DNA of 46,671 nt, taken from contig JABLTJ010000028.1 in assembly GCA_013166775.1 (NCBI GenBank), positions 1 through 46,671 of the forward strand, read 5' to 3'. The first letter of the stretch is position 1, and each line of letters opens with the position of its first letter. The notes under the pieces are model-generated. The model ran no database searches. It worked only from the letters and a program-made list of their open reading frames with translations, and was not told the origin of the DNA. The stretch comes from Promethearchaeati archaeon. GTDB lineage: Archaea; Asgardarchaeota; Heimdallarchaeia; Heimdallarchaeales; Heimdallarchaeaceae. A program made the position numbers and the translations under genes. This document shows positions 4,178 to 26,313 of this stretch, piece after piece.

Positions 4178-4438
4178 TTGGTAAATATTCTTCAAGCTCT
4201 TAAAGTCTCAATCCTGTTTTTGTTTCTAGGAATAATTCCATTACTAGTATCAGTGCTTTCCATACTTGCTATAAATGCTTTAAGTTTAGATCCTAATGGA
4301 GGATTGAATTTGGGTTTTATTGTATTGGGTGGATCCCCCTATATATGGATAATAGCAACAGCGGGAGGATTTATTATATTCTTTGTAGGGCTATTCAAAG
4401 CAATTGGGGATATTACAGAAGCTGCATTGATTGAGTAA
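4178..4438 (+). CDS. Small two-TM membrane protein, unknown function
   Basis: GGAGG SD upstream of a TTG start; two long hydrophobic segments; fills the intergenic gap cleanly. Confidence 0.7.
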   Translation: MVNILQALKVSILFLFLGIIPLLVSVLSILAINALSLDPNGGLNLGFIVLGGSPYIWIIATAGGFIIFFVGLFKAIGDITEAALIE

Positions 4439-4622: not shown

Positions 4623-6338
4623 ATGATTCAATCTTCTCAAGCTAAGGAAAAAAGAGAGTCAACATCCATAATTTTAGCAAGCGAATCATTTTACAAGAAC
4701 ATTCTAAGTTTCTCTACTTTAGCAAAAATTCTTTCTTTAGGTATTCTTGGAATAATTGTTTATTTTCTTTTAACGTATGTCGAGAGATTTGTTAACTCCG
4801 ATTATTTTCCAATTATGATTGTGCTAATCATTGTAATGCAGTTTATTCTTTGGTTATCGGTTGTTTATACTTTCTTTTCCATTACTGCAACAAAATTAGA
4901 ACTTACTGTAGTAAAGAAAGTTTTCACTCTCTTATTAATTATGGGAGCTTTAACAGCATATTTTGCCGTTGTAATAAATAATAAAGCACTTATTTTTGCA
5001 TCAGTTGTTTCAAGTTTTTTGGAGCAGTTTGGAATTGTAACAAATACAATCCCCTATGTTCAATTTAATTTCTATGTCTTTATTATACCAATTCTAGAAG
5101 AAGTAGCAAAAATCTTTCCCATAATCATTCTGTTGGGAAATTATACTCAATTCATATTTGAGAAAGAACGTATTCAAACTAGAGTAACCCCCTCTCTGAG
5201 AACTTTTGTCCTCTATGGCGCATTTTTTGGTGTTTGGTTTGATCTCTTTGAACAGTTTTTCCAATATTCAAATTTATTAACGGATAATGTCTCATCTCAA
5301 TCTATAGTTAATAGCTTGATATATTCTAGAAGTGTATATCCTCTTCATTGTGTTACAACAATGATAGCTTCCTTAGGTTTGGGGATTGTTTTCATTAATA
5401 GGAGAAAATTACGAAAAAGAATTCAAGTTTTCTTATTCAGTACTTTCATACTTTTAGCCGCTTGTCTTCATGGTTTGTGGAATTATTATTCCATTTCTCT
5501 GTTAGATCCTTCAACTCAATTTGCTGCTTTGACAACAATAGGTATCATTTCTATTGGTATTTTTGCTGTCTTCGTGATGTTCTTATTATTGTATAAACCG
5601 AAATTATGTAGTTCGTGCTATACAGAACATGCTTCAGGTAACTGTGTTGAGGTAGATTATAATTTGGAAGAAATTTCAAAAAACCTTTCAAAAAAACGCA
5701 AGATTACTCCCCTCTTACAAAATTCTCACGATATGATTTTATGTTCACAATGCCAAAATAAAACATTTAATGGCTACTTTTGCATGAATTGTTGGTCTTT
5801 TCCAAAACTCCAGTGTAACAACTGTAATCAAGTTTTACCTTCGTATACAAGAATCTGTTGGTCATGTGGTACAGAAGTTCCAACACTTTATGCTAAGATG
5901 ACAACTTCTTCTCCAACGTTTTTTGTTAACTTATCTGTTGGTCTTACAAGAATTCTAGGCGCAGGGATGTTTATTAGTTTCATATTTGCTTTCGCTACAT
6001 TGAGGAAAACCATATTTTCTATAGGGTCTCTATCCTCAATGGGTTATATTATCCTCCTATTAGGGATAATTCTATCACTTTTAGTAACAATAGTTTGGTA
6101 TGCTTACAGAGATAGTAAAGTTAAATCAATGATCAGTTCAATGAACTTAATCTCTATAGCTGCCATCTCTATCATAATTACAGGTTTATATCTTTCTGTT
6201 TTTGCTTTCCTCATGATAATTACTGTTGCACAAATTGTTATGGGTTTTATCGGATTAACTTGTATTTTGTTGATTATTACAGTATCTGTGATTTATCTAT
6301 TGAAAATAGTAAAGGGGGCTAGATTAATTATAATATAG
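4623..6338 (+). CDS. PrsW-family glutamic-type intramembrane metalloprotease with inserted zinc-ribbon domains
   Basis: All four PrsW motifs: EExxK (ILEEVAK), FxxxE (FDLFEQ), His (PLHCVTT), HxxxN (LHGLWN). Cys clusters CSSC..H..C, CSQC..CMNC, CNNC..CWSC. Many TM helices. Confidence 0.85.
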   Translation: MIQSSQAKEKRESTSIILASESFYKNILSFSTLAKILSLGILGIIVYFLLTYVERFVNSDYFPIMIVLIIVMQFILWLSVVYTFFSITATKLELTVVKKVFTLLLIMGALTAYFAVVINNKALIFASVVSSFLEQFGIVTNTIPYVQFNFYVFIIPILEEVAKIFPIIILLGNYTQFIFEKERIQTRVTPSLRTFVLYGAFFGVWFDLFEQFFQYSNLLTDNVSSQSIVNSLIYSRSVYPLHCVTTMIASLGLGIVFINRRKLRKRIQVFLFSTFILLAACLHGLWNYYSISLLDPSTQFAALTTIGIISIGIFAVFVMFLLLYKPKLCSSCYTEHASGNCVEVDYNLEEISKNLSKKRKITPLLQNSHDMILCSQCQNKTFNGYFCMNCWSFPKLQCNNCNQVLPSYTRICWSCGTEVPTLYAKMTTSSPTFFVNLSVGLTRILGAGMFISFIFAFATLRKTIFSIGSLSSMGYIILLLGIILSLLVTIVWYAYRDSKVKSMISSMNLISIAAISIIITGLYLSVFAFLMIITVAQIVMGFIGLTCILLIITVSVIYLLKIVKGARLIII

Positions 6339-6346
6339 GTGATTAA

Positions 6347-7342
6347 ATGGAGAGGCATGAATATATACCACCAAAACCTGATAAAGCAAAAGAAGAACCC
6401 CCATTTAAAATAAGTTATAGACAAATGTTATACAGGCTCTTCTTTCCTCATCTTAAGAATAGGGGAAAAAGAGAATATTTCGGAGTTCTTGTCCTTAGAT
6501 CTTCAATATATCTTGCTATAGGTTATGCTCTGTCAATTCTGTTTGGGATAATAGTATATTTCATATCAGAGTTGAGTGAAATATCATATCTAATATGGTC
6601 ACCAGATCAGATTCTGGTTTTACCATTTGCATTGGTTTTCATGGAAGATGCTATGCTTGGTGAAGATACAGCTCTTTCTTTTGTTACATATTATATTGTA
6701 GTAATTATCATACCGTTTTTAGTAGCAGGTGTGATTTCAGGAATTTTCTGGAGAAATGAAGCTAGGGACTTGATACTAAGTTCTTCGATAATAATATTCA
6801 TTCTTTTCATTCTGCTTCATGCTTCTCAAGAATTACTTTTTACATATTTTTCAAATGCTATGTTAGCAGTGCTAACAAGCTTTGTCTATTTTGCATTTGT
6901 AGTGCTGTACGGAGTAACTTTTATGATTTTTAGTGCTGTTGGGGGTTATATCGGTGTCCTATTTGGAAATTTACTAACAAACATTGTGTTTACAAAGAGG
7001 GGTGCTAAAGTAGCCTATTCTCATCTTATCATGCCACAGATGCCTTTAACTGTGAAAACAATTTTCGATTTAGCACCTCCAGTAAAAAAGGAAGATGCTC
7101 GCTACAGTACCATGTCTTTGATCTATTTAAATAGAAGAATCAAAAGAAATTTGCGACTTTCCCGTCTTAAAACTTGCCCTTATTTTGAAGAAAACCAATG
7201 TGCCTATCTTGGATATATAACTTCATCTCACAAATATCAAATATGTGTAACTGATTATTGGACCTTGTGCAAAATATATGCATTTCTTAGTCAGAGCAAG
7301 AAAATAATTGAAGAAACTGAGGAAGGTGAAAAAGTTGGCTAG
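6347..7342 (+). CDS. Polytopic membrane protein with C-terminal four-Cys putative metal-binding domain
   Basis: GGTGA SD; about 5 hydrophobic segments; C-terminal CPYF..QC..QIC..LCKIY. Confidence 0.7.
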   Translation: MERHEYIPPKPDKAKEEPPFKISYRQMLYRLFFPHLKNRGKREYFGVLVLRSSIYLAIGYALSILFGIIVYFISELSEISYLIWSPDQILVLPFALVFMEDAMLGEDTALSFVTYYIVVIIIPFLVAGVISGIFWRNEARDLILSSSIIIFILFILLHASQELLFTYFSNAMLAVLTSFVYFAFVVLYGVTFMIFSAVGGYIGVLFGNLLTNIVFTKRGAKVAYSHLIMPQMPLTVKTIFDLAPPVKKEDARYSTMSLIYLNRRIKRNLRLSRLKTCPYFEENQCAYLGYITSSHKYQICVTDYWTLCKIYAFLSQSKKIIEETEEGEKVG

Positions 7343-8105
7343 AGGAATCTGGAAATATGTTAATTTCAAGACTCTGATTATTATCATATGTATACTCATA
7401 TTCATTTTAATTAATAGTATACAAGAAGATTATGTTGGTTTGGATGAAGTTTCTGACACTACTTTAATTACAACTAATACGGGAACAACACCTCCAACTC
7501 AACCAACATATCCAACTGATCCAACAGGTCCAAGTTTTCCAACTGATACTTTTAGTCAACCAGAAAACGGAATAGATACAAGTGGAAACCCATTTATTCC
7601 GGCACAGATAATTCCCGCTATAATAGCAGTATTAGTTGGCATCTTGCTTGTAATGCTATTTTTACGTAGAAAAAAAGCAATTTCAGATTATGTATCTCAT
7701 ACTCCTACTTCCCAAGGCGTGCTCAAATCAAGACGAGAAAAATTCAGAACAGAAATTAAAACACTTGTTGAGATACTAAAAGAATACTTGATGCAAGAAA
7801 AGTATAATGAGGGTATAATCTATGGTTTTCATCAACTAGATAAAAACATGAAAAGAATTCTGGGAATACGAAGAGAATCCCATCTTACTCCAAAAGAATT
7901 CTCCAATTCTTTAGATTTACCAGAAATTTTACCTTATTTAGACTTGATTATTGCAACCTTCTATATTGCACGATATAGAAATGAAGAGATGATTTATGAG
8001 AACTTGGAAAGTTTTATAGAAAATCTGCAGAAAATTAAGAACCTCAGTAAAGTAAAAGCAGACATCGAGATTATTGATAGAAAGGTTCAGGGGGATTTTA
8101 ATTGA
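7335..8105 (+). CDS. Membrane protein with Pro/Thr-rich linker and C-terminal DUF4129-like domain
   Basis: Two TM segments flank TTPPTQPTYPTDPTGP. C-terminal YNEGII..LTPKEF..FYIARY pattern. I moved the start from 7308 to the in-frame TTG at 7335 because AGGTGA precedes it. Confidence 0.75.
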   Translation: MARGIWKYVNFKTLIIIICILIFILINSIQEDYVGLDEVSDTTLITTNTGTTPPTQPTYPTDPTGPSFPTDTFSQPENGIDTSGNPFIPAQIIPAIIAVLVGILLVMLFLRRKKAISDYVSHTPTSQGVLKSRREKFRTEIKTLVEILKEYLMQEKYNEGIIYGFHQLDKNMKRILGIRRESHLTPKEFSNSLDLPEILPYLDLIIATFYIARYRNEEMIYENLESFIENLQKIKNLSKVKADIEIIDRKVQGDFN

Positions 8106-9388
8106 GTAAAATAAAGATTCTATTCAATCCTAAGTACCAACCTCTTTTCAAAATGTTAATTCAGTTACTTATAATTTTTATAATTGTCACATTACCTTTA
8201 ACCTTTAATTTTGCTCTATCTTCTCCACCCTATACTATAAACAATTCAAATCCAGGTGGCATGTCCTATTTCAACACTCTACTGGAACAAAATCAGTTCA
8301 ATACTACGAGAACTATTCTTTCAACTGATCCAATACAAGGTTTACCTGAAAACTCAATCTTAGTTATAAGTGGAGGTACTAAGAACTATAGATCATCAGA
8401 AAAATTCGTTATAGACTCTTTTGTTGCTAGAGGAGGATTATTGGTGTTACTAGCAAATGAAGGACCAACCTATGAACTTGCTGAATATTTTGGTGTTTTC
8501 ATTTCAGCCTCAAATATATTAGAAACACAATATTACTACAAATCTCCAGAAATTCTAGTGCTGGAATCACCATTTTATGAAAATGAATCCTTATGTTTTG
8601 TACAAGCTAAAGCAATTTTACAAGTTTCACAAAACGAACAGCAAACAGAATTGTTTGAGTTACGAACAGAAAACACAGCTTTTATTGATTCGAATAGCGA
8701 TAAGAAATGGAATGTAATTCATGAACCTCTTGGAAGATTAAAGGTAGGAACAGCATTTCAGAGAGGATTGGGGGCAGTTATTATTCTAACCTCACCAAGT
8801 TTTCTTACCAATGATTTGTATAGTGAAGGATTTGGTAATATTGACCTTGTATTTGATTTATTACGCTTATATTCTCCGGGAGCTGATAGATTAGTATGCT
8901 TTGAAGAAAGTCACAAAACATGGCCTTTTGCATCAACTGAAGGAATCATTAATCAATCATATGGAACATTAATTCTACTAACTAAAACACCGTTGTTCGT
9001 TTTTGTTATGGTTCTAATTGTACTAGTGCTTTTCTATTTGACACCGAGATTCAGAGAAATTGTAAAATCAAGTGAAACCTACAAGAAATTTCTAACAGAC
9101 AGAATTTGGAGTAGAAAAAGAGAACTCTATGATACTTTTGGATCACCAATAAAACCTACGGTAGAGGAACAATATTTGTCAAATTTATATTTCCAATATG
9201 AACTCTATCCTAAAGAATCTTATAGTTATTATCTTGAAGAAAAATTAAAATTCATATCAATAGATAAATTTTCAGAGAAAGAGAGAGAGCTATTTGAAAA
9301 TGCTCTAAATAAAAAATTAGATGGAAAGACCTTTCTTTCCCTTTTTCTTATGCTAGAAGAAATTCAGAAACGAGGTAAATTATCATGA
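8102..9388 (+). CDS. DUF4350-like membrane-anchored protein (operon A)
   Basis: N-terminal TM, then YTINNSNPGGMSYF, FVARGGLLVLL, GLGAVIILTSPSFLTND, VCFEESH and a second TM. Overlaps both neighbours by 4 nt. Confidence 0.78.
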   Translation: MSKIKILFNPKYQPLFKMLIQLLIIFIIVTLPLTFNFALSSPPYTINNSNPGGMSYFNTLLEQNQFNTTRTILSTDPIQGLPENSILVISGGTKNYRSSEKFVIDSFVARGGLLVLLANEGPTYELAEYFGVFISASNILETQYYYKSPEILVLESPFYENESLCFVQAKAILQVSQNEQQTELFELRTENTAFIDSNSDKKWNVIHEPLGRLKVGTAFQRGLGAVIILTSPSFLTNDLYSEGFGNIDLVFDLLRLYSPGADRLVCFEESHKTWPFASTEGIINQSYGTLILLTKTPLFVFVMVLIVLVLFYLTPRFREIVKSSETYKKFLTDRIWSRKRELYDTFGSPIKPTVEEQYLSNLYFQYELYPKESYSYYLEEKLKFISIDKFSEKERELFENALNKKLDGKTFLSLFLMLEEIQKRGKLS

Positions 9389-10329
9389 CACAAGTACATG
9401 AAACCAAAGAAATATTTGATAAAATAATGAATGAAATGAGTAAAAGAATTGTAGGAAATGAAACTGTTTTAGAATTGATTTTTGCTTCACTGTTAAGTGA
9501 GGGACATGTACTTCTCGAAGGTGTTCCCGGAATTGCAAAAACACTGATGGCAAGCACTCTGGCTGAAGTAGTTAAGATGGATTTTAAGAGAATCCAATTT
9601 ACAAGCGATTTAATGCCTGCCGATATAACAGGAGGAAACATCTATGAGCGAGAAACAAGTTCTTTTACATTTATAGAAGGACCGGTTTTTACTAACATTT
9701 TATTGACTGACGAGATTAATAGGAGTCCTCCAAAAACACAATCAGCACTCTTAGAAGCTATGCAAGAAAAACAAGTATCTGCTGGGAAGAAAACATACAA
9801 ATTGTCAAAACCATTTATGGTAATAGCAACACAAAATCCAATAGAATCTACTGGGGTATACCCTCTGCCTGAAGCGCAGGTTGATAGATTCTTGGTTAAG
9901 ATTCCGGTTTATCCTCCATCCTTGGATGGGGAGATTGATATGCTTAAAATGAAAAGAGAAAAGATGTTCGCAGATGTAGACGCAGTTACTAAAAGAGATA
10001 CAATTCTGAAATTAATAACAGAAATCGAAAAAAGTGTAGTAGTAAGCAATCAAATTTTGGAATATATAGCAAAACTAGTATTAGCAACAAGATCCATTCA
10101 TTCTCTAGCACTGGGAGCTAGTCCTCGAGGATCAATAGCACTTCTTACATTAAGTAGATCAATCGCAGCTATACGAGGACGAGATTATGTTGAACCAGAT
10201 GATATAAAATCAATATTCTTTCCAGTGATGAATCACCGATTAATTCTCTCTCCAGAAGCAGAAATTGAACAAATTAGAATTGGAGAAATTATACAGAATA
10301 TACTATCAGAAGTTGAAGTTGTTATTTAA
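9385..10329 (+). CDS. moxR: MoxR-family AAA+ ATPase (copy A)
   Basis: Walker A GVPGIAKT, RIQFTSDLMPADITG, Walker B LLTDEINR, ATQNPIE, YPLPEAQVDRF, sensor II GASPRG. Confidence 0.96.
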   Translation: MTQVHETKEIFDKIMNEMSKRIVGNETVLELIFASLLSEGHVLLEGVPGIAKTLMASTLAEVVKMDFKRIQFTSDLMPADITGGNIYERETSSFTFIEGPVFTNILLTDEINRSPPKTQSALLEAMQEKQVSAGKKTYKLSKPFMVIATQNPIESTGVYPLPEAQVDRFLVKIPVYPPSLDGEIDMLKMKREKMFADVDAVTKRDTILKLITEIEKSVVVSNQILEYIAKLVLATRSIHSLALGASPRGSIALLTLSRSIAAIRGRDYVEPDDIKSIFFPVMNHRLILSPEAEIEQIRIGEIIQNILSEVEVVI

Positions 10330-10356
10330 GAAGTGCATACAGGAAGATGAAACTAG

Positions 10357-11739
10357 ATGGAAGCAGCTAAGCATTTTGAGCTAACCAAAAATGGAAAAGC
10401 CTTCATCCTTTTTGGAAGCTTGTTCATAGTTCTAGGTTTAGCTATTGATAACTACCTTCTAGTTGTTCCAGGTTTCATCTTCTGGATTGTTGTAACTTCA
10501 ACTTTTATAAGCTACTTCCAGCATCAGAATCTAAATCTTGATCTTAAATTAAGTGTATCAAAAACTTATATGCGAAGTAGAGGATTGTTGGCAGTAGCTA
10601 CTGAAATCAATAATTCTTCATCTAAAGCTGTAAGATTTAAAATTACTTTAGGTATATCTTTTCATTTTAGAAGTATAAAAACACCAGAAACAGTGTATAT
10701 TAAACTTCAACCAAACGAGACGAAGAAGCTAGTATGGTTATTATTAGCAGTTAGAAGAGGAAGTGCAACAATTGGACCTGCTGAAATTTCTGTAGGACCT
10801 TTCCAAAATCTCTTTGAAAACAAAAGAATTCTAAAAGAAAAAATAAATATTAAAGTACTCCCACAAAGACCTAGAGTTAATATTCCATGGAAAACTAAGA
10901 AAGAACTCCTATTGAAAATGGTTCATGAATTTGCAAAAAGGGTGAAAGGAAGAGGGGATGAGTTTTTCGCTCTTCGCGACTATCTTCCTGGTGATGAAGT
11001 AAAACATATTGATTGGTATGCAACAGCTAGACATGATCGATTAATTAGTAAGGAATTTGAAGATGAGAGAAACCTCCATTTTCTTATTTATCTTGATCTT
11101 GGAGGTACGATGTTTGGACCGAAATTTGAATATGCTCTATCATCTGCAGTCGAACTTTCCTCTCTTATAAGAGGAACCAATCATGATTTAGGAGTTATAG
11201 CGTATTCAAACATTGTAAAACGTTTCATCGTTCCTCAATTGGGTAAAAAAGAACTCTCACTGATGCTCAATCTCTATGACTTAGAAGCAACAGGTGTTCA
11301 GAGTAATTTCATCAATGCAGTTAAGTTTACAAAGAATAACCAACTCTTACATTCTATTGCAATAATCTTCTCTGATTTAGAAGGTGATTTACGCAAGAAA
11401 CTACAAGGATTGCATCTCCTTCAAACAATGGGAAGTCGAGTTATTTTTGTAAATTTTTCCACCTTAGATTTCAATATTTTAGCATCACCAGGTTGGTTAT
11501 TGTCTAAATCTCAAGATATGGATTACAGTCTTGTAATTGAACGTGTATTTCCCAGCTTAGTTAAAGATGAGTACAAAAGACGGGAAAAAGAACTACGAAA
11601 GATTCTCTATTCTGTTGGGGGAGATTATATCGAAATAAATGGGTATGAAGATAACATCATTTTATCTCTTTACAGACTTATGAAGAAATATTCACCAACA
11701 CAAAGATTGGTACAAGAGGCATTGGAGCGATGGACATGA
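10357..11739 (+). CDS. DUF58 / vWA-domain MoxR partner (copy A), degenerate MIDAS
   Basis: N-terminal TM hairpin, Ig-like segment, DUF58 signature GRGDEFFALRDYLPGDEVKHIDWYATAR..KEFEDE. The MIDAS position reads DLGGT. Confidence 0.9.
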   Translation: MEAAKHFELTKNGKAFILFGSLFIVLGLAIDNYLLVVPGFIFWIVVTSTFISYFQHQNLNLDLKLSVSKTYMRSRGLLAVATEINNSSSKAVRFKITLGISFHFRSIKTPETVYIKLQPNETKKLVWLLLAVRRGSATIGPAEISVGPFQNLFENKRILKEKINIKVLPQRPRVNIPWKTKKELLLKMVHEFAKRVKGRGDEFFALRDYLPGDEVKHIDWYATARHDRLISKEFEDERNLHFLIYLDLGGTMFGPKFEYALSSAVELSSLIRGTNHDLGVIAYSNIVKRFIVPQLGKKELSLMLNLYDLEATGVQSNFINAVKFTKNNQLLHSIAIIFSDLEGDLRKKLQGLHLLQTMGSRVIFVNFSTLDFNILASPGWLLSKSQDMDYSLVIERVFPSLVKDEYKRREKELRKILYSVGGDYIEINGYEDNIILSLYRLMKKYSPTQRLVQEALERWT

Positions 11740-12569
11740 GAATCAGAGATAGAATTTTCGAAGAAGAGTGGAAAAAAACTGTGATATCTACTCCTGGTTC
11801 CTCGATATTAGTTGTTGCTCATCTTTTGTTTGGTATATTTGCTACTGCGATTATTATAATTCAATCTGCTTTTAGTTTTAACGTATACATCTTCTCTATT
11901 TGGCTAATCTTTGGTTTAATTATTCTTCTTACAGACCTTTTCAGGGGAAGAAATATTAAACTAAGCTCTGAGCTTGGTTTTGGTTTCTTTTTCATATTAG
12001 GTACAATTCTATCTTTGTTACTTGGTAATGTATACTCAATGTTCTTTCCTGAAAATCTTGGACGAATTGATATTCTTATCTTTCAAATTTCTACTGGTAT
12101 TTGTGTATCAATTCGTTTTCTTATTACTTTCTTTTATGAGGAATTCTTTTCTCAAGAGCAAGAATTTATAGCACCAGACAGTAAATATGCTAAAGAGCAA
12201 ATAGAGCAATATATACTTAATTTAGTAAAAACTGATTTCGAATACAGTGAAATAGAACAGATAGGGCTTTTCGAAAAATGGTGGTATACTTTAAAGAAAA
12301 TGATATGGCCCACTATTAGTGTTTCTATTCTTATTACTCTAGCAGCTCTTTATTCTCTTCTAATCTACTATATAATTCCCAACGATGCAATATCTGAATT
12401 AATAATCGTTCCTTCTCTGATTATTGCAGCAATATTGTATTCCATACTTCTTATTAGGTTAAATGACGTTATTCCAAAAATGCAAGAGAAAGAGAAAAAA
12501 ATCCTTGAGTCTGAAGAATGGGAAGAAGATTTATTAGAAGAAATAAATGAGGAGATTGTATCTTCCTAA
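11730..12569 (+). CDS. Polytopic membrane protein with acidic C-terminal tail (last gene of operon A)
   Basis: About 6 hydrophobic segments; tail ESEEWEEDLLEEINEEIVSS; overlaps the upstream stop (start at 11730 or 11736). Confidence 0.72.
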   Translation: MDMRIRDRIFEEEWKKTVISTPGSSILVVAHLLFGIFATAIIIIQSAFSFNVYIFSIWLIFGLIILLTDLFRGRNIKLSSELGFGFFFILGTILSLLLGNVYSMFFPENLGRIDILIFQISTGICVSIRFLITFFYEEFFSQEQEFIAPDSKYAKEQIEQYILNLVKTDFEYSEIEQIGLFEKWWYTLKKMIWPTISVSILITLAALYSLLIYYIIPNDAISELIIVPSLIIAAILYSILLIRLNDVIPKMQEKEKKILESEEWEEDLLEEINEEIVSS

Positions 12570-12577
12570 TTAATATC

Positions 12578-13270: not shown

Positions 13271-13556
13271 AAGATCACTACCTTGATTAGCTATCTGAAT
13301 TACTAAGTAATCGTATTTGACTTCTTTTTTAATGAATGTATGACATTGCTTTTTTTACTCTGTAATTTGATTTCAATATTATAACAATATTTCAATATTT
13401 AATCCTAAAAAAATTAAACTAAAGTAGATTTACTATTAAAAATCGATTTCCTTTTTACAAGTATTTATATCACAAAAAGTTTTTGAATAAAGTGGAGCTA
13501 TAGAGTCAATAGGGTAACATCGGGTACTCTGGGTATTGTGTAGTTGAGGTTGCAAG

Positions 13557-19500: not shown

Positions 19501-20251
19501 ATTTAATGCAACAGTGATAGATGCAATCACAGGAGTCGAAAATGTAACTCTAGTGATTCTCTACAATGACGTAGAATATACAATCAATATGACACAGGTA
19601 GGAACGACGTCGACATATACTGCAAGTTTCAATCTGGCAAATATACCACTAGACAGTTATGGTACCTATGCATTACAATATCAAATAATTGCTGAGGATG
19701 TGGTTGGAAATAGTGTTTCAACAACAGTGAATAGCTTATCTGTTCTTTACCAAAATCCACAAGGGAGTCCTGGTGGTTTTACGGGAAGTTGGGGTGCTAT
19801 AATTGGAGCTTCAGCAGGCGGTCTTGTAGCTATTATTGCTGTTTTATTCTTGTGGATCAATCGTCATACAATTCAAACATTTGCAAAGAAACAAACCTTC
19901 AGACGAAGACTCAGAGACTATTTAAGGGAAATAATCGAAGACATAAAGAAAGATGGTTTGGAAGGCAGATATAAAGAAGGAATACTAAAAACATGGAGAG
20001 TTGTTGAGGGAATAGGAAGGGAATTCTACAATTTACCAAGATATAGGAGTCAAACTCCTATGGAATTTTCACGATTACTTGCTCAGAAGGGTAAAATTGA
20101 GCGTGAGCTCCTATATACTCTTCTAGAGTATTTCACAAAAGCACGATATGGATATGAAGAAATCACAGAGAATGATTTCAATTCCGGTGTTCGTGCTCTC
20201 TTAAAAATAGTAGATAAAATCGAAGTAGGTGAAATGCAAATTGAGTCATAG
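16577..20251 (+). CDS. Large cell-surface glycoprotein with multiple Ig-like repeats, C-terminal TM and cytoplasmic DUF4129-like domain
   Basis: Signal peptide; repeats of type DxxAPTI..DVGSGI..YYIIAKDYAGH and TPPTIS..DAITGV..YQIIAEDVVGN; TM WGAIIGASAGGLVAIIAVLFLWI; then YKEGIL..QTPMEF..FTKARYG. Confidence 0.8.
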   Translation: MALTFNKIFTIIFVLGILTSNILTVLPSSEESDEKINSFNQYSDFLNNQDFLLSNQKSHSHSNYYAANHLTDNLEEDIEKTSIKCTSPIMEDLIIERRQSFIDQEPSIKKSVSDPTNYTEFYRGDNIDIAGKLWDGVTFWEGETVEIYYNITQAQFLSDITGYRASIYRIQDVVTDSFGNFTYSIPTSDLSIDITSKVGDITIFTWFNGNYPEGRFAGSPGEAIVTVYGQVRLDVTPTVGNRDSPYSFYVELNFENGTRAPTSGTNFNIKVEWTEAGETHVDDIRTFTGSNDFLYTNTAPLAISNVTCDTSYALANLPFFNFKVFGDSTMSETVVTNTTIRETYDKAEVKAYYDTGTILDDSRIDVALDSFIILYANVSNSTQAMGAGYTVTIDFYNSSGLYNSTDVFTNSSGEITTIHYIDHNNFPTITGLDNFYIRFNLNPSEFPILIQGDILRADLTVNIGSVEVSIDDPTSFYTSGLDIDFGLVVKDEFGRILPYADFSIAFPGYGVFSDTAGSSGIYNTSNTIPIYILAEQTDTKTIIVDALAKTATYYKYLLPGATQGSDLFNMYYSLTLELRGEYDPDTITDGEDVDFWNNTYYSIFNPGSYNLTVTDQSGRNPIGAPFSITFEGKTISGTVTSLNNIIFLSLSFDILGYESDSGVDLSVAGIYVLQATAGEGDYASGNTITQNINIYGPDNDAPTITFVGLSPDPYDPGIHDPYYNITVTVAASDVGSGIRYVEIYYRILEEDNSTVSVGWTPVKMNFMGGDIYELVINTTLSDAQYYVQYYIIAKDYAGHGLDDLGAKQTNPIYYYDIGFGLEDMVYSQSLPDFYQVGDIAKPIEEAAPTIVDSLDPLNPYLNITVYVNDTQIYSGMASVALDVYVFDNATGLEVDNYQVDMVNNPGTNEWFYQLQGVYNSDIIWRYVARDGASPLPNNLFGSQMVYSVVEFTPPTISNIFLDYNGTVVLHDSLIIFNATVIDAITGVENVTLVILYNDVEYTINMTQVGTTSTYTASFNLANIPLDSYGTYALQYQIIAEDVVGNSVSTTVNSLSVLYQNPQGSPGGFTGSWGAIIGASAGGLVAIIAVLFLWINRHTIQTFAKKQTFRRRLRDYLREIIEDIKKDGLEGRYKEGILKTWRVVEGIGREFYNLPRYRSQTPMEFSRLLAQKGKIERELLYTLLEYFTKARYGYEEITENDFNSGVRALLKIVDKIEVGEMQIES

Positions 20252-20696
20252 TGGAATCTTTGGATTCTTAAGAAAAAGAAAACAAGTAAAATCTCTAAAT
20301 CAAATGTTTACTTCAGTAATGGCTGATGTGAGAATCTTTGAACAAAGACAAGACTACAAAGGAGCAGTAATTGCTTCTTTTGGAGGATTAGCTAGCATAG
20401 CAGGTGGATTGCTGGAAATGTCCAGATCTCCTTCTCAAACAGGTAGAGAATTTGGTTTTGCTGTTGCTGGTAGAGCTAACATCTCTAATGAAGTAATGGA
20501 TGAATATCTTACATCATTTGAAATTGCTAGATATACTGACGCTGAAATTACTTATGATGACTATCAAGAAGCAATCCAAAGGCTAGATATCTGTTTCCGT
20601 GGAATAAGAGAACAGGGTGTAGAAGTTATTGAGCCAGCAAAGAAATCAACAAAGAAACCAACAAAGAAGAGAAAAACAATCAAGACGAAGACCTAG
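20229..20696 (+). CDS. Stand-alone soluble DUF4129-like protein with Lys-rich tail
   Basis: YKGAVIASF..SQTGREF..FEIARY matches the neighbouring DUF4129-like domains. The start could be the TTG at 20241. Confidence 0.75.
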   Translation: MKCKLSHSGIFGFLRKRKQVKSLNQMFTSVMADVRIFEQRQDYKGAVIASFGGLASIAGGLLEMSRSPSQTGREFGFAVAGRANISNEVMDEYLTSFEIARYTDAEITYDDYQEAIQRLDICFRGIREQGVEVIEPAKKSTKKPTKKRKTIKTKT

Positions 20697-22305
20697 AATA
20701 AAACTATCATTTACGAAATATTCGATAGGGATGTTTATTCTCTTCATGATCATAGTAGTACCTATTTTCCTAGGGATAGTAGGTCTGGGTGGTTATGGTA
20801 CAAAATTCAGTATATATAGTGAAAGTTGGGATGGGCTTTCAAGTTTGCGATTGGCTTTGGAATCAGAAGGCTATACTAATATAACAAATGGAATGTCATC
20901 TCTTGCTGTATTAAATAGAATGACTGAACCAGCTGTAGTAACCATAATAGGTCCTGCTGCAAGCTATGGACAAATTGATACAATATCCGTAGCTACATTC
21001 TTAGCAAGAGGTGGAAGTTTGATTGTTGCTGATGATTATGGTTCAGGTGCCCAAATTTTTCAACCTTTGTTTGATATCCTCAATACTTGGGATGAAGTAT
21101 CACAACTTAGTGGTGGCAGTATTCCCTCTCTGTCTGATCTCTTTTTGGGGAATCAAACTGATTCAGGTAATGTAACTGAAGCAAATCTACTCTTTTCAAT
21201 GATAGGGATGTTGAAAGGGTTTGCTTTTAATGGCTCAATTCTTATGGATGCAGAAAGTTATACAACCAATCCAGCTCAACCATTGTTAAAGAACATGGAA
21301 ACCTCTAATCCTCTAACTGCAGGGATATCTTTAGGATTACAAATGGAATTTGGTACAGTATTAAGCATAGCAGTGAATCATTCAGAGTACGTTGATAGTG
21401 GTCTTACTGAAACAGTAAAAACATATCGAACGGACTGGATGCCATTGCAAGCAGTATCTTTAGAATTATTTGGTCATGAAATACAGGATCAGTTTCTTCC
21501 ATTTCTACCGTTTTATACATCAAAATCTGCTTGGATGGAATCAGATTTTCAATCAGCAAGGAAAGGAATATCTACTCCTGATATTGATGAATGGGGTAAT
21601 GTAATGTTTGCACCAATTATGACCTTACCAATTGGTTTTGGAAAAATAATTATGATTGGTGATCCTGATATCTTTATCAATAAATGGATTGATAAAACCA
21701 CTGAGAACGATAATTTAATTTTTTCAAGAAATCTGTTTGAATACGTAACAGAGAATATGAACGCAACTAATGGACCAAAAAGTGTTCCTATTATATTCGA
21801 TGAAGGGCATTCACATCAAAAATTCTATAGTGCTTCGATTTATTCAATAATATTAATGAAATTAATTACAGAAATGTCAATGTTTCCACTTTATTCACCT
21901 TTTATTCCTCTATTTCTTGCAGTACTTGCTTATCCTCTAATTCCAAAGAAAACTCGATTGTCTCCGATTTTATGGACGAAATATAGAGGGGAAAAAGGTA
22001 AATCAAGATTTGAGAGGGAGATACGAAGAATAGTGGATACGGGAGCGTACAGTGAAGCAGTAGGTTTACTGTATAGAACCTTATTGAGGGGATTAAGAAA
22101 GGTGTCAAAACAATCAATGGCGACACCTGAAGAAATAGTAGACTTTTTCATCACCAGAGATCCAGCTCTGACAACAAAAAATCTACTGCCCGAATTAAGA
22201 AATATTGATGCGTATTTAGCAAGACCACGTATTCTTCCAGAACACGTGTTCATGCGATACATGACGTTCATTAAAAGTTTAATTGACAGATTACCAAGAA
22301 TGTAA
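20629..22305 (+). CDS. DUF4350-like membrane-anchored protein (operon B) with degenerate DUF4129-like C-terminus
   Basis: TM, then FSIYSESWDGLSSL, FLARGGSLIVADDYGSG, GFGKIIMIGDPDIFIN, IIFDEGH, second TM, and C-terminal YSEAVGLLY..ATPEE. Confidence 0.8.
   Translation: MSQQRNQQRNQQRREKQSRRRPRIKLSFTKYSIGMFILFMIIVVPIFLGIVGLGGYGTKFSIYSESWDGLSSLRLALESEGYTNITNGMSSLAVLNRMTEPAVVTIIGPAASYGQIDTISVATFLARGGSLIVADDYGSGAQIFQPLFDILNTWDEVSQLSGGSIPSLSDLFLGNQTDSGNVTEANLLFSMIGMLKGFAFNGSILMDAESYTTNPAQPLLKNMETSNPLTAGISLGLQMEFGTVLSIAVNHSEYVDSGLTETVKTYRTDWMPLQAVSLELFGHEIQDQFLPFLPFYTSKSAWMESDFQSARKGISTPDIDEWGNVMFAPIMTLPIGFGKIIMIGDPDIFINKWIDKTTENDNLIFSRNLFEYVTENMNATNGPKSVPIIFDEGHSHQKFYSASIYSIILMKLITEMSMFPLYSPFIPLFLAVLAYPLIPKKTRLSPILWTKYRGEKGKSRFEREIRRIVDTGAYSEAVGLLYRTLLRGLRKVSKQSMATPEEIVDFFITRDPALTTKNLLPELRNIDAYLARPRILPEHVFMRYMTFIKSLIDRLPRM
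20638..20669 (+). repeat. 12-nt tandem repeat (CAAAGAAAYCAA, about 2.7 copies) inside a gene overlap
   Basis: caaagaaatcaa caaagaaaccaa caaagaag read directly from the sequence. Confidence 0.7.
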
Positions 22306-22316
22306 AAAATGGAAAA

Positions 22317-23333
22317 GTGAAAAAAATGAGTGAAGAAGAAAAAGTTGAACCCAGTCCCAAAGTGAAAACAAAAACAGCTACTGAAGCTGTTGTCACACCA
22401 AAGGATGTCAAAAGAGTATGGGAAGAAATCTATAGCGAGATTAAACGTGTTATAATCGGAAAATTAGATGTTTTAGAAGACATGTTTATTGCTCTTCTTG
22501 CTGGTGGGCACTGCTTACTAGAAGGTGTTCCAGGAATTGCCAAAACTGTAATGGCTAAAACCTTTTCTCAAACACTTGGTTGTGAGTTCAAAAGAGTACA
22601 ATTTACTCCAGATCTTTTGCCTTCAGATGTAGTTGGTACGACCATCTATGATCCTAAAGCAGGAACTTTCAAAATGAGAAAAGGACCAATATTCACTAAC
22701 ATCTTACTAGCAGACGAAATCAACAGAAGTCCTCCAAAGACTCAAGCAGCTTTGCTAGAAGCTATGGCTGAGAAGCAAGTAACAGTAGAAGGAACAACCT
22801 TTAGACTCGAAGATCCATTCCTCGTCATTGCTACACAAAATCCAATCGAACAAGAAGGTACATATCCTCTCCCAGAAGCTCAAGTAGACAGATTTATGTT
22901 TAAGCTTCTAGTAGATTTACCATCGCCTGAAGAAGAAATGGAAATTATAAAACTAAAGCACAAACAAATCAGACAAACTGTTAGAAGAGTAACAACTCCA
23001 ATGACTATTAACAAAATGAAAGAAACAGTTGAAACAAAAATATTCGTTCATGAGGATATCATGGTGTATATTAAAGACATAGTCGTAGCAACCAGAACTG
23101 ATCCCCGCTTGATACTTGGTGGAAGTCCAAGATGCAGTATTGCGCTCTTAAGTGCAGCAAAAGCTGTTGCTTCAATGCGAGGAAGAGATTATGTTATTCC
23201 AGATGATGTTAAGAGAGTCTCAAGAGTTGCCACTGCTCATAGATTACAAATGAAGCCTGAAGCTGAGCTAGAAGGAACAACTGGTACGATTGTGGTTAAT
23301 GAAATCCTTAGAAATCAAGAAGTACCGGTATAA
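22317..23333 (+). CDS. moxR: MoxR-family AAA+ ATPase (copy B)
   Basis: GVPGIAKT, RVQFTPDLLPSDVVG, LLADEINR, ATQNPIEQEGTYPLPEAQVDRF, GGSPR. The likely start is the ATG at 22326. Confidence 0.96.
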   Translation: MKKMSEEEKVEPSPKVKTKTATEAVVTPKDVKRVWEEIYSEIKRVIIGKLDVLEDMFIALLAGGHCLLEGVPGIAKTVMAKTFSQTLGCEFKRVQFTPDLLPSDVVGTTIYDPKAGTFKMRKGPIFTNILLADEINRSPPKTQAALLEAMAEKQVTVEGTTFRLEDPFLVIATQNPIEQEGTYPLPEAQVDRFMFKLLVDLPSPEEEMEIIKLKHKQIRQTVRRVTTPMTINKMKETVETKIFVHEDIMVYIKDIVVATRTDPRLILGGSPRCSIALLSAAKAVASMRGRDYVIPDDVKRVSRVATAHRLQMKPEAELEGTTGTIVVNEILRNQEVPV

Positions 23334-23356
23334 TGAAACTGAATAGGTGAAAAAAT

Positions 23357-24811
23357 TTGTTCACACGCCGTGGTGGTTGGTTAGTCTTTGCTGGAGTGAT
23401 AATGATTAGCGTAGGCTTTGCATTAGCAGGATATCTTTCACTGAATGTTATGTTCGATTCATTTGGTTTTAGTCCATCACCGAATTCGACAGTACCAGGG
23501 GAATCTGAATCCACAGAAGGATTTGGTGTGATGGATTTCTTGCATTTCTATATGGACAGACAAGGGACCTTAATCTGGTTCTTTATAATTGGCGGAGTAA
23601 TGTTAATATTCTCAGTGCTTTTGGGGTTGCCATTTTACAGACTAGGAGCAAATCCTAAATCAATAGAGATTAAGAGAAGAGTTTCAAAGCCTAAAGCCTT
23701 CGCTGGGGACTATATGTATATAGAGGTAACTGCACGAAATAGATCAGTTAACCAGTTACCAACGGTGGAAATATATGATGCTATTCCTGAAGTATTCGAC
23801 TTGGTACTAGGAGAAAACTTCATAGTGGCGCAATTGAATCCGAGACAAACTGTAACTTATGGTTATATTGTCCGCATCCCAATTAGAGGACTGTTTGAAA
23901 TTGGTCCAACAAAAGTAATTATTAGGGATAGAATGGGTTTCTATGCAACAGAAGGGGAAATAAAAACAAAAACAGAAATTTTAGTATACCCAAGCTATGA
24001 AGATGTTAAGAAACTAGAGATGATAGGAAGGAAAAGACAATTAGGAGTATTGTTTGGATTCCACAGGACAAAAATAAAGGGTATGGGTACGGATTTCTGG
24101 GGTATCAGACAGTATCAAACTGGTGATCCTTTCAAATTCATAGATTGGAAAGCATTCTCTAGATCTGGTAAAATGATGGTGCGTGAATATGAATCTGAAG
24201 AAAACATCCGAGTTGTGATTTTACTAGATTCATCAGCAAGTATGGGAGCTGGTCTTCCACGTAATACTAAACTAGAATATGCTATCCGAAGTGCTGTGCT
24301 TCTGATACATCTTGCTTTTGAAAAAAGCGATATAGTTGGTTTGTGTGTTTATGATGATAAAATAAGAAATTGGATAGAGATGACCTCTGTACGATCGCAA
24401 TTGTTCCAATTTCTAGAAGCTCTTGCACATGCAAAACCACAAGGAGAAGCTGATATGGAAGTAGCTATAGACTATGTTCTTCAACGTGTTAAGCGTGCAG
24501 CTTACGTAGTAGTTCTTTCTGATCTTGAATCCAATCCTCAAAAAGTTGTTAATGCTGTTCGAAGAGCTCGTGCAAGAAAACATAATATTACAGTTATATC
24601 CCCATTTGGACCCTGGTTTGAAATCGTTTCACAACAACTTTCACCTGTAGAACAAATGATTGGTCATGCAATGGTTGAGAAACAACTTGGAGAACGACAA
24701 AACATGTTTAAATTACTTCGTCGATACGATTCAACATCGGTTTCTGTAGGACCAGATGATTTCTTGCCCACAATTATGGCTCAATTTAATAGAATGCAAA
24801 GACAAGGGTGA
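23357..24811 (+). CDS. DUF58 / vWA-domain MoxR partner (copy B)
   Basis: Two N-terminal TMs, Ig-like domain, GMGTDFWGIRQYQTGDPFKFIDWKAFSR..REYESE, MIDAS DSSAS, TKLEYA, LSDL; AGGTGA SD before a TTG start. Confidence 0.92.
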   Translation: MFTRRGGWLVFAGVIMISVGFALAGYLSLNVMFDSFGFSPSPNSTVPGESESTEGFGVMDFLHFYMDRQGTLIWFFIIGGVMLIFSVLLGLPFYRLGANPKSIEIKRRVSKPKAFAGDYMYIEVTARNRSVNQLPTVEIYDAIPEVFDLVLGENFIVAQLNPRQTVTYGYIVRIPIRGLFEIGPTKVIIRDRMGFYATEGEIKTKTEILVYPSYEDVKKLEMIGRKRQLGVLFGFHRTKIKGMGTDFWGIRQYQTGDPFKFIDWKAFSRSGKMMVREYESEENIRVVILLDSSASMGAGLPRNTKLEYAIRSAVLLIHLAFEKSDIVGLCVYDDKIRNWIEMTSVRSQLFQFLEALAHAKPQGEADMEVAIDYVLQRVKRAAYVVVLSDLESNPQKVVNAVRRARARKHNITVISPFGPWFEIVSQQLSPVEQMIGHAMVEKQLGERQNMFKLLRRYDSTSVSVGPDDFLPTIMAQFNRMQRQG

Positions 24812-26313
24812 TGATGAATATGGAATCTTTAGCCGATACAAAATTTATTGACCTTGGAATACGAGGTGTTCAACGTCGTATCCGTGGAACAAGATATCAA
24901 TCATTAATAACATATGTAGTGGGGAGACTGGTTGCCTTAGGTATTGTAGCTTGGGTAATCATTCAATTGTATAATCTTATTGATTTTGGAAATATCGAGA
25001 AATTTCCAGAAGGATATCTTTTTGACTCTTTAACATTCGTTTTTGTATTTCTTGAAATCATTGTTATTATATTCTTTTCATTACCTCTGATGCTTCTTCT
25101 ACTTCTTCCCATGAATGATGGTCAATCGGTAATGTTAGGGCTTCGTGCTTTCATATCAGAAGATTTATTTGGTGGAATAAATCCACCTGGAGGAATATCT
25201 CCTTCAGAATTCTTTGGTGGAGGAGCAACAAATCTTTTCGGCCCCTTTGTTAATCTCTTCAATAATGAAACGCTTCAACCATTAAAAGTTGCCAATAGAG
25301 CATCCATTCTCATGTTGGTAATAATTCTTTTTGGGGTATCCATCTTAGCTTTTCTTATACGAGCGGATATGCGTTCTGCAGCTAGTGCATTCATATGTAT
25401 TCAATTTGTTGTATTCTTTGGAAGTGTTCAGTTATTATTGCAAGGAAATTCTTTCTCATTTTCCCCTACAAATAGAATAGGTGATTTGTTCTCAAATCAA
25501 GTTGTTTTAATAGCTCTTGCATCTTATCTATTTCTCGAGGTGGCTTTGCAGATATCCTATATCTCGCAAATTTTGAATCCTGCTCAAAGCAGACAAGAAA
25601 GAGTTTTAAGAGCACTAGATCGCTTGCGAGAATTTAGATTAGGAATAACTGGGGCAGAAGAAGAAACACTACAAACAGTGGAAGACGAGGATGAAGAAAA
25701 GAAAGCCTCTCTCTCAATAGGTGGAGCGGGGAGTAGTATTGCACGAAGATTTGGTTTAGCTGGTATGAGCTACTTCATAGAGAAAGCTTCTGATTCTTTG
25801 TTCGCTAAACCTGGTGGACAAAGAGATAAACTTACATCAAGATTACAGAGATACCATGATGGCTTAGTACATAGCGATGCTCAAGTTGACGACAAGTTGG
25901 TTGGTGCATCAATAGCTGTTAAACCACTAATGACATTAGTTTATGTTTTAGTTTCTGTGATTTTCCGCGTAGGTATAATGCTCGCAGGTTTATACGCTAT
26001 TCTTAATCCTGATATACTACTTTTCGTTTTAAGATATCCACCATCAATTTACAATTCATTGGAAATGCTAGAACCAGAAGGTGTTGTTCTATTATTAATC
26101 CCTATTGTCATTTTCATACTCCTGTTAACCTCTTTGGTAGGATACATCCAAGAGAGATTTTCTTCAAGATTCGAAGAGGAACTAGATCCACTTCTTGAGG
26201 AAATTCAATATGTTGAAGAAGACAGACCTGGAATAATTACAGAAGGTGGACTAACACCTATCACTGAAGAAGATGTATTCTACGAAGAATTAACAGCAGA
26301 ATTCGAAGAATAA
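24808..26313 (+). CDS. Polytopic membrane protein with long acidic C-terminal tail (last gene of operon B)
   Basis: About 7 hydrophobic segments; tail EEELDPLLEEIQYVEED..EEDVFYEELTAEFEE; start overlaps or abuts the DUF58 stop. Confidence 0.75.
   Translation: MMMNMESLADTKFIDLGIRGVQRRIRGTRYQSLITYVVGRLVALGIVAWVIIQLYNLIDFGNIEKFPEGYLFDSLTFVFVFLEIIVIIFFSLPLMLLLLLPMNDGQSVMLGLRAFISEDLFGGINPPGGISPSEFFGGGATNLFGPFVNLFNNETLQPLKVANRASILMLVIILFGVSILAFLIRADMRSAASAFICIQFVVFFGSVQLLLQGNSFSFSPTNRIGDLFSNQVVLIALASYLFLEVALQISYISQILNPAQSRQERVLRALDRLREFRLGITGAEEETLQTVEDEDEEKKASLSIGGAGSSIARRFGLAGMSYFIEKASDSLFAKPGGQRDKLTSRLQRYHDGLVHSDAQVDDKLVGASIAVKPLMTLVYVLVSVIFRVGIMLAGLYAILNPDILLFVLRYPPSIYNSLEMLEPEGVVLLLIPIVIFILLLTSLVGYIQERFSSRFEEELDPLLEEIQYVEEDRPGIITEGGLTPITEEDVFYEELTAEFEE

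Follow-up and report, generated by a model that had tools for sequence, protein, structure and literature searches.

The window analysed here, a 46,671-nucleotide stretch corresponding to contig C79 of a 3.85-Mb genome with a completeness of 88.7%, carries two gene blocks that each encode a MoxR AAA+ ATPase and a DUF58 adaptor amid a set of membrane proteins. We refer to these blocks as operon A (4623-12569) and operon B (13557-26313); each comprises seven open reading frames (ORFs), and all 14 lie on the forward strand (Table 1). Their common order is DUF4129-like protein, DUF4350 protein, MoxR, DUF58 and a polytopic membrane protein. ORF coordinates, Pfam assignments and profile comparisons with hhalign agree with the initial annotation of this DNA, which had described two co-oriented, tightly coupled seven-gene operons with a shared core order, and its proposal that the source is an Asgard archaeon is borne out by homologues that carry the name Candidatus Heimdallarchaeaceae. 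We identify the pair, with high confidence, as two old paralogous operons of a known module, operon A being its PrsW-led Heimdallarchaeia form and operon B its Asgard-wide form.

Within each block, neighboring genes overlap or are separated by at most 27 nt (successive junctions of +8, -35, -4, -4, +27 and -10 nt in A, and -10, -23, -68, +11, +23 and -4 nt in B). Between the blocks lies thyX, on the opposite strand and with its stop 8 nt from that of A7, and this antisense placement implies two transcription units. The gap of 325 nt between thyX and B1 is AT-rich and should carry divergent promoters. The synteny survey proposed with the initial annotation found the 14-gene order kept within the family, and the A and B types kept more widely. 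The complete arrangement, including thyX, was recovered by tblastn, and by phmmer on fetched regions, in three genomes of the same genus (G001, G012 and G004) and in G065 from another genus, and paired DUF58 coordinates indicate the tandem in G043, G109 and G120 as well. The compared genomes are metagenome-assembled genomes, and non-detection in them does not amount to absence. As the same 14-gene order recurs in other genera of the family, the arrangement is far beyond chance. The thyX spacer itself stands between the operons in G001, G012, G004 and G065.

Table 1. Genes of operons A and B and adjoining features, with positions in the window
Feature	Position	Strand	Basis
A1, PrsW-family intramembrane protease, 571 aa	4623-6338	+	PF13367 E 8.9e-17
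A2, polytopic membrane protein, 331 aa, basic C-terminal Cys4 domain	6347-7342	+	transmembrane segments
A3, bitopic DUF4129-like protein	7308-8105	+	Pfam DUF4129 E 0.007, below cut-off
A4, DUF4350 protein	8102-9388	+	PF14258 E 5.3e-10, above cut-off
A5, MoxR-proper AAA+ ATPase, 314 aa	9385-10329	+	AAA_3 E 1.5e-63; AAA_lid_2 E 5.9e-22
A6, DUF58 adaptor	10357-11739	+	PF01882 E 1.1e-17
A7, membrane protein with six transmembrane segments, 279 aa, acidic C-terminal tail	11730-12569	+	ORF list
B1, polytopic transglutaminase-like protein, 1009 aa	13557-16586	+	Transglut_core E 0.045, not significant
B2, giant surface protein, 1224 aa	16577-20251	+	C-terminal DUF4129 E 1.1e-5 at residues 1152-1208
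B3, small soluble DUF4129 protein, 155 aa	20229-20696	+	PF13559 E 5.3e-5
B4, DUF4350 protein, 558 aa	20629-22305	+	PF14258 E 4e-10, above cut-off
B5, MoxR-proper AAA+ ATPase, 338 aa	22317-23333	+	AAA_3 E 3e-66
B6, DUF58 adaptor	23357-24811	+	PF01882 E 1.6e-35; VWA_2 E 4.7e-12
B7, polytopic membrane protein, 501 aa, about seven transmembrane segments, acidic tail	24808-26313	+	ORF list
thyX, between the operons	12578-13231	-	PF02511 E 8e-58
Small ORF, 86 aa, two transmembrane segments	4178-4438	+	ORF list and translation; no family assignment

The conserved core and its membrane topology

Both MoxR proteins retain intact ATPase motifs (in A5, a Walker A of GVPGIAKT followed by DEI.R and ATQNP), and B5 is 86-90% identical across the genus. 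Secondary matches of the two ATPases to bpMoxR (E 8e-11 and 2e-9) bring to mind the anti-phage or conflict systems of the MoxR-vWA-beta-propeller ternary type (Kaur et al. 2020); however, these matches score 37-42 bits against 213-222 bits for AAA_3, which is some 170-185 bits higher. The operons also show no beta-propeller, VMAP or effector domain, PADLOC returned no match beyond a marginal DolB, and the core genes are vertically conserved, with a base composition like that of their surroundings. A role as a conflict system is therefore exceedingly improbable.

The DUF58 adaptors begin with a transmembrane (TM) hairpin in A6 and two N-terminal TM segments in B6, followed in each by a body that is predicted to be cytoplasmic and that bears a vWA-like domain in A6 and a vWA domain in B6. 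A6 is 71-73% identical within the genus and 58-62% identical in other genera of the family. The metal ion-dependent adhesion site (MIDAS) is intact in B6 (DSSAS at residue 291), and DxSxS is found in eight of nine Asgard B-type sequences, whereas the site is degenerate in the A-type DUF58 proteins of the family (DLGGT) and in actinobacterial DUF58 proteins (DTSRM, DSGRL). The A and B adaptors probably bind their partners in different ways.

The DUF4350 families of A4 and B4 align with an hhalign probability of 99.8% over 385 columns, and A4 gives a second, weak Pfam match to ABC_transp_aux/GldG-like (E 1e-5). Counts based on the positive-inside rule predict for A4 a TM segment, an outer domain of about 260 aa, a second TM segment and a cytoplasmic tail of about 114 aa. 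Homologues in the B4 slot occur in the Asgard families f4, f7, f10, f11, f13 and f22. A3 is predicted to consist of a TM segment, an acidic outer loop of about 62 aa, a second TM segment and a cytoplasmic DUF4129-like domain, and its true start may be the ATG at 7335. In hhalign comparisons of family profiles, A3 matches the TM-plus-tail family of B2 at 98.3% and the B3 family at 93.6%, which points to A3 as the A-type counterpart of the B2 tail. B3 itself matches the B2 tail family at 99.1% and is 78-85% identical within the genus.

Positive-inside counts assign to the cytoplasm the DUF4129 domains, the DUF58 body, the DUF4350 tail and the acidic A7 and B7 tails, whereas the DUF4350 domain and the B2 ectodomain are predicted to face outward. 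Densities of N-glycosylation sequons agree with these charge counts, with 1.5-1.9 per 100 residues in the DUF4350 outer domains and none in the C-terminal cytoplasmic tails. The description of both operons as membrane-spanning sets arranged around a cytoplasmic MoxR and DUF58/vWA pair holds for A as well as for B. The profile-based annotation proposed for all 14 genes succeeded for the core and for PrsW, but left A2, A7 and B7 without a family; NCBIfam offered no family for any of the ten non-MoxR proteins tried.

Lead genes and partner proteins of operons A and B

The front ends of the operons differ as first described, with PrsW bearing zinc ribbons and a Cys-bearing membrane protein in A, and a pseudo-transglutaminase and a large Ig-like protein in B. 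The PrsW domain of A1 scores 61.7 bits against a cut-off of 23.5, together with a weak DZR match (E 0.002), and its motifs EEVAK (159) and HGLWN (283) are intact instances of EExxK/R and HxxxN/D, which we take to be the motifs defining the PrsW family. PrsW (MEROPS M82) is the site-1 protease of Bacillus subtilis that cleaves the anti-sigma factor RsiW, and we know of no sigma/anti-sigma pair in archaea. A1 resembles the Bacillus protein in its PrsW domain, which scores above the cut-off, and in carrying EExxK and HxxxN, but differs from it by a Cys-rich zinc-ribbon insert in the central loop (five CxxC at 329-415), by about four extra C-terminal TM helices and by its fixed lead place in a MoxR operon. 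A hidden Markov model (HMM) of the A1 family identifies the lead gene of A-type operons in G025, G030, G032, G065, G167 (3e-39) and L056 (4e-10); across 80 mostly bacterial loci it found no match except L056.

A2 has four Cys within its last 55 or so residues and no Pfam or NCBIfam family. The A2 slot is filled by a four-Cys protein in G030, G032, G065 and G167, with a C-terminal C..YLGY...IC motif in the first three and a differing motif in G167. Searched for with A7 as the only query, this protein turned up in 22 of the 24 genomes that represent the genus but not in other genera; phmmer gave a weak match in G027. A SpoIIM-like identity for this slot was considered and set aside, as neither A7 nor the A7-slot proteins of five other genomes match Pfam SpoIIM. 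Upstream of operon A, the 86-aa ORF lies 184 nt before the PrsW gene; tblastn places it at the same position in G001, G012, G004 and G065 (40-61% identity), its C-terminus carries a conserved FFVGLFKAIGDI.EAAL.E motif, and it may be an eighth gene of the operon.

Operon B opens with B1, whose own match to a transglutaminase core is not significant, although orthologues at 33-57% identity carry PF01841. The catalytic triad positions are occupied by F476, Y521 and Q541, and 19 aligned orthologues have F, V, S or A in place of Cys, Y or F in place of His, and Q in place of Asp; the homologue in G027 (family f4) retains the His alone. The initial reading of B1 as a pseudo-transglutaminase is thus upheld by loss of the triad in 19 of 19 aligned orthologues, and B1 is a conserved pseudoenzyme and not a decaying gene. 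Its C-terminal region of about 320 aa is sequon-rich, with 2.6 sequons per 100 residues after the TM segment at 672-690 versus 1.17 before it across the 19 orthologues. Sequence searches of the PDB with B1 and B2 returned no match, and the B1 family profile gave only non-significant PDB hits, among them one over the relevant region to 6g49, a protein-glutamine gamma-glutamyltransferase (E 3.2).

B2 is predicted to comprise a signal peptide, an all-beta ectodomain of about 1050 aa, a TM segment and a cytoplasmic DUF4129 tail; the ectodomain carries 24 sequons, whereas the tail is free of them. An AlphaFold2 (AF2) model of the ectodomain, folded with six orthologues, is beta throughout, but only its C-terminal third reaches a predicted local distance difference test (pLDDT) score of 70-89; the rest is poor, with residues 1 to about 670 mostly below 60 and largely below 50, and Pfam shows no beta-propeller. 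Foldseek aligns the model with Ig, FN3 and macroglobulin chains (mastigoneme, complement C5, alpha-2-macroglobulin, Robo2 and contactin; E about 1e-12), which supports the earlier assignment of Ig repeats at the level of fold class. Within the genus, the ectodomain is 36% identical whereas the tail is 83-85% identical, and the same unevenness runs through the operon, with 78-90% identity for B3, MoxR and DUF58 versus 40-44% for B1 and the whole of B2.

B7 is represented in 21 of the 24 genus genomes and, across the order, in eight of the nine genera sampled. Its AF2 model is helical (pLDDT 61). Conservation in the B7 family is highest at residues 329-350, in a long cytoplasmic loop, where the motif DSLF..PGG....LT.RLQRYH does not vary among 12 sequences whose overall identity falls as low as 27%; this motif is a candidate docking or catalytic site. 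The initial annotation had treated the last genes of the operons as a shared polytopic acidic-tail protein. This equation fails: the A7 and B7 families align with an hhalign probability of 2%, homology between them is rejected, and the slot is common by position alone.

Distribution and age of the A and B types

Among the genomes searched, the A type is confined to the class Heimdallarchaeia and the B type extends across the Asgard phylum. A operons were recovered in families f2, f3, f4 and f5, in a Hodarchaeota record and in an uncultured archaeon, and A operons with a PrsW-like lead gene in f1, f2, f3, f5 and the uncultured archaeon. The whole B operon is retained in family f4, and all five components of the B core (a large DUF4129-ending protein, DUF4350, MoxR, DUF58 and a B7-like protein) are present in G076 (f22), G110 (f10) and G173 (f13). 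The core was found with no detected DUF4129 protein in G046 (f11), in G074 (f7) and in a Promethearchaeia record, and as DUF4350-MoxR-DUF58 only in G041 (f7). Asgard genomes outside Heimdallarchaeia mostly have one DUF58 of this class, which is B-like. A profile search with B7 over 1.84 billion representative proteins gave 92 matches, every named member of which is Asgard, and a gene of this family follows DUF58 or MoxR in each Asgard family examined except G041/L047. In family f3 (L026, L028, L030 and L036), B-type genes are rearranged to DUF58-MoxR-B7, with no DUF4350, DUF4129 or giant gene detected in the fetched 20-kb stretches; this rearranged triad indicates that the module can be split.

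Two further observations concern MoxR-DUF58 sets outside the tandem. G027 (f4) has two A-type sets, on C283 (L043) and C68 (L052), besides its B operon. The DUF4129 protein of L052 is 384 aa long (PF13559 E 2.6e-9), and the A1 family HMM found no PrsW-like gene in the 18-kb stretch of that locus. A third MoxR-DUF58 locus lies in the same genome as the window, in a different build (G000:C38, L001:9079-19999). It runs from an ArsR/TrmB-type HTH protein through MoxR (AAA_3 E 1e-64) and three family-less proteins of 722, 239 and 530 aa to a short DUF58 of 313 aa with VWA_2, a 618-aa protein with a weak CARDB match below the Pfam cut-off, and a large ORF. Its MoxR forms a long branch outside the A and B clades.

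The initial annotation held that the MoxR proteins are close and their partners strongly diverged, and that the operons were duplicated and specialised in this archaeon. The contrast itself is real, with A-B identities of 50% for MoxR versus 24% for DUF58 and 23% for DUF4350, but it is no sign of a recent copy. A5 is 42-51% identical, among the matches listed, to bacterial MoxR proteins from Streptomyces, Flavobacterium, Chloroflexi and others, and the contrast with the partners reflects the slow evolution of MoxR rather than recent copying. A MoxR tree of 65 rows, with supports from the Shimodaira-Hasegawa-like approximate likelihood ratio test (SH-aLRT), resolves an A-type clade of 11 rows (SH-aLRT 99) and a B-type clade of 13 Asgard rows (94-99), and sets A and B together on one side of a branch with a support of 59.9.

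A recent duplication in this lineage, followed by specialisation, would fit the tandem, co-oriented operons, the closeness of the MoxR proteins relative to their partners and the best tree's grouping of A and B MoxRs apart from the other sequences. It does not fit the near-equal distance of A5 to the Streptomyces, Flavobacterium and Chloroflexi sequences, and that grouping is poorly supported. Each type also forms a well-supported clade across several families, the B type phylum-wide and the A type class-wide, and in families f2 to f5 the A and B operons were found either on separate contigs or far apart on a single one. We give this scenario very little credence. Both types are old clades; they may stem from an ancient duplication inside Asgard, whereas a recent one is excluded.

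Relation to described modules and a proposed mechanism

The initial annotation had put the locus forward as an undescribed system, a claim that earlier literature does not allow. A neighborhood of DUF4350 (arCOG01314), MoxR and vWA genes with Ig-like surface proteins was described from genomes in 2015, with a secretion or membrane-remodelling complex proposed and MoxR and vWA viewed as a remodelling pair (Makarova, Galperin, Koonin 2015, PMC5898192); MoxR-vWA operons with a transglutaminase-like (TGL) protein were described in 2012 (PMC3495828); and a related actinobacterial pathway was reported in 2026 (bioRxiv 10.64898/2026.09.08.750141). Both operons are lineage variants of the module predicted in 2015 and not a new kind of system. 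Like the arCOG01314 module, they combine a DUF4350 protein having TM anchors and a large outer domain with a COG0714 MoxR, a vWA/DUF58 protein, an Ig-like surface protein and further membrane proteins. They differ from it in lacking the S-layer-like partners (arCOG02884/PF07760) listed there, as none of the 14 proteins matches PF07760 in Pfam (with E up to 10 for the family-less ones) and other surface and membrane partners stand in their place. The vWA protein is placed outside the cell in the arCOG01314 model, whereas the TM-hairpin topology predicted here puts it inside. DUF4129 partners, a PrsW lead, a dead TGL, the B7 family and tandem paralogous sets are not described in PMC5898192.

The core order is common to archaea and Actinobacteria. 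In Kribbella rubisoli, MoxR stands in the series membrane protein, DUF4129, DUF4350, MoxR and DUF58, and Gleimia europaea has a GPDPase_memb-like protein, a 205-aa protein, DUF4350, MoxR and DUF58, with an RDD protein further downstream; the 205-aa protein occupies the DUF4129 slot and gave no DUF4129 match. These cassettes share with the operons studied here the core order, similar protein sizes and flanking polytopic proteins, and their MoxR proteins are 45-47% identical to A5 among the matches listed. However, their flanks hold GPDPase_memb-like and RDD proteins in place of PrsW, the Cys4 protein, A7 and B7, and no giant surface protein or TGL was found in the stretch examined.

Pseudomonas aeruginosa TgpA is an example of the YebA/TgpA-type transglutaminase-like protein. 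MoxR-vWA-TGL operons of this type resemble operon B in encoding a polytopic TGL protein together with MoxR and DUF58. Unlike their TGL proteins, B1 lacks the Cys, His and Asp in all orthologues of the family and so cannot be a peptidase or transglutaminase; it also has the extra sequon-rich C-terminal region of about 320 aa, and genes for DUF4350 and DUF4129 proteins lie between it and MoxR. Zhang and Aravind (2012) put forward the MoxR-vWA-TGL operons as a membrane-proximal degradation system in which vWA recruits the substrate, MoxR unfolds it with ATP and a peptidase cuts it, with inactive TGL domains acting as peptide binders (PMC3495828). An intact PrsW as the conserved lead gene of operon A speaks for such ATP-dependent proteolysis, as does the fact that a model of this kind has been published for related operons. 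A Chloroflexi locus points the same way: in Chloroflexi bacterium JACRMH010000003.1, an Rce1-like (CPBP) protease (L107:10465-11283, PF02517 E 1.1e-9) directly follows DUF58 and is a second, unrelated intramembrane protease joined to the MoxR-DUF58 module. Yet with the triad lost in all family orthologues, and only the His kept in G027, B could not work through its TGL domain, the MIDAS of the A-type adaptor is degenerate, and PrsW, which cleaves in or close to the membrane, has no known requirement for an unfoldase. We judge this account decidedly unlikely for the pair.

The closest tested analogue found is the actinobacterial Esr pathway. In Schaalia odontolytica, deletion of esrA1, which encodes an Ig-filament with a beta-propeller, abolishes the response to an epibiont; the transglutaminase EsrD retains EsrA on the cell; and esr clusters also encode MoxR and vWA proteins, with signalling through a kinase to an FHA protein (bioRxiv 10.64898/2026.09.08.750141). 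The bifidobacterial PFNA cluster has the order pkb2, fn3, MoxR, duf58 and tgm (PMC8430577). As in these clusters, operon B joins a large secreted Ig/FN3-repeat protein, a transglutaminase-like membrane protein, MoxR and vWA/DUF58, and a comparable outside-in sensing system would use B2 as a surface sensor filament that signals through MoxR and DUF58 to a cytoplasmic response. The match of parts favors this idea, and so does the pairing of a fast ectodomain with a conserved tail, as expected of a sensor at a biological interface. The Esr and PFNA clusters, however, include a Ser/Thr kinase, a phosphatase and an FHA output, none of which was detected by Pfam among the 14 genes or their flanks, and the beta-propeller tip of Esr was not seen in B2, though the N-terminal two thirds of that model are poor. 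The Esr transglutaminase is proposed to be active; a dead TGL could not anchor B2 covalently as proposed for EsrD, and B2 has a TM anchor of its own. DUF4350 and DUF4129 are absent from Esr so far as bioRxiv 10.64898/2026.09.08.750141 describes it, and B7 is likewise not described there. As an explanation of the locus, Esr-like sensing is unlikely, while still deserving attention.

The published secretion model (PMC5898192) would give the module a role in exporting or assembling large proteins of the surface or S-layer, and DUF4350 a GldG-like part. It draws support from the weak ABC_transp_aux/GldG-like match of DUF4350, from the mostly membrane or surface location of the components and from a giant surface protein that is always co-encoded in B-type operons. 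Against it, B2 has a signal peptide and a TM anchor, so that Sec can place it; neither operon has a channel-forming or ABC component; the A type has no large exported client; and topology counts assign a cytoplasmic position to the DUF4129 domains as well as to MoxR and the DUF58 body. A secretion function is accordingly improbable. Esr-like sensing, secretion and ATP-dependent proteolysis are all nonetheless live rivals for parts of the mechanism.

The explanation that we favor, with modest confidence once identity and mechanism are taken together, is that A and B are paralogous operons of a DUF4129-DUF4350-MoxR-DUF58 envelope module. In this module, a cytoplasmic MoxR hexamer would be held at the membrane by the DUF58 adaptor through its TM hairpin and vWA domain, and would use ATP to remodel the conserved DUF4129 tails and the C-terminal tails of bitopic partners (B2, B3, A3 and DUF4350), thereby assembling, holding or switching a trans-membrane complex. 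The B2 tail is the first candidate docking site because it is so much better conserved than the ectodomain. The outer face of B would be formed by a fast-evolving, glycosylated beta-sandwich stalk and the DUF4350 domain, serving surface display or sensing, and the dead TGL domain of B1 may act as a peptide-binding scaffold and not as an enzyme. Within this taxonomic order, B is led by a catalytically dead transglutaminase-like protein; A has no large ectodomain. The original view that the operons link large extracellular Ig scaffolds to an AAA+ motor hence suits B and not A, where the outer loop of A3 measures only about 62 aa. In A, remodelling would be coupled to PrsW, which would cleave a membrane partner.

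Several points weigh against the envelope-module explanation. The topology is drawn from crude hydropathy, charge and sequon counts, and TM counts, charge and sequons give conflicting answers on which side of the membrane the TGL domain of B1 lies. Co-transcription within each operon is a reading of gene spacing. The MoxR trees leave an origin of A by duplication inside Asgard undecided, given the support of 59.9 for A plus B. Neither A7 nor B7 has a family in Pfam, NCBIfam or PADLOC; ESM Atlas placed both only in unnamed clusters below 0.9, and a Foldseek search of the PDB with the B7 model gave nothing with E <0.4. Finally, neither the 14 genes nor their flanks gave a Pfam match to a kinase, an FHA protein or a transcription factor, and the lack of an output component leaves a signalling reading of B with no visible downstream step.

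A more specific and rather unlikely extension of the envelope-module explanation is that operon A is a protease switch new to archaea, in which MoxR-DUF58 would use ATP to expose A2 or A3 to PrsW or hide it. PrsW and MoxR occurred together in no paper found by our literature search, and Asgard together with MoxR only in unrelated work. If true, operon A would be a protease-based trans-membrane signalling route of Heimdallarchaeia beside the surface-stalk system B, and the pairing of MoxR-DUF58 with an intramembrane protease, whether PrsW or the Chloroflexi Rce1-like protein, would give the module a first general function.

The present analysis adds the MIDAS contrast, the rate split between B2 tail and ectodomain, the Asgard-only B7 family, the HMM evidence on the A-type lead gene, and the comparisons with Esr/PFNA and with the proposal of Zhang and Aravind. 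Among prokaryotic proteins, MoxR is considered the closest relative of the dynein/midasin AAA+ domains, and ciliary proteins repeatedly contain inactive TGL domains (PMC3495828), which lends the Asgard setting some added interest. The DUF4129-DUF4350-MoxR-DUF58 module is among the commonest conserved membrane operons of bacteria and archaea without a tested function. The Heimdallarchaeia pair offers a natural comparison, with a giant fast-evolving surface protein and a dead enzyme scaffold in B and an intact intramembrane protease in A, and this comparison separates MoxR, DUF58, DUF4350 and the cytoplasmic DUF4129 domain, as the invariant engine, from the exchangeable clients.

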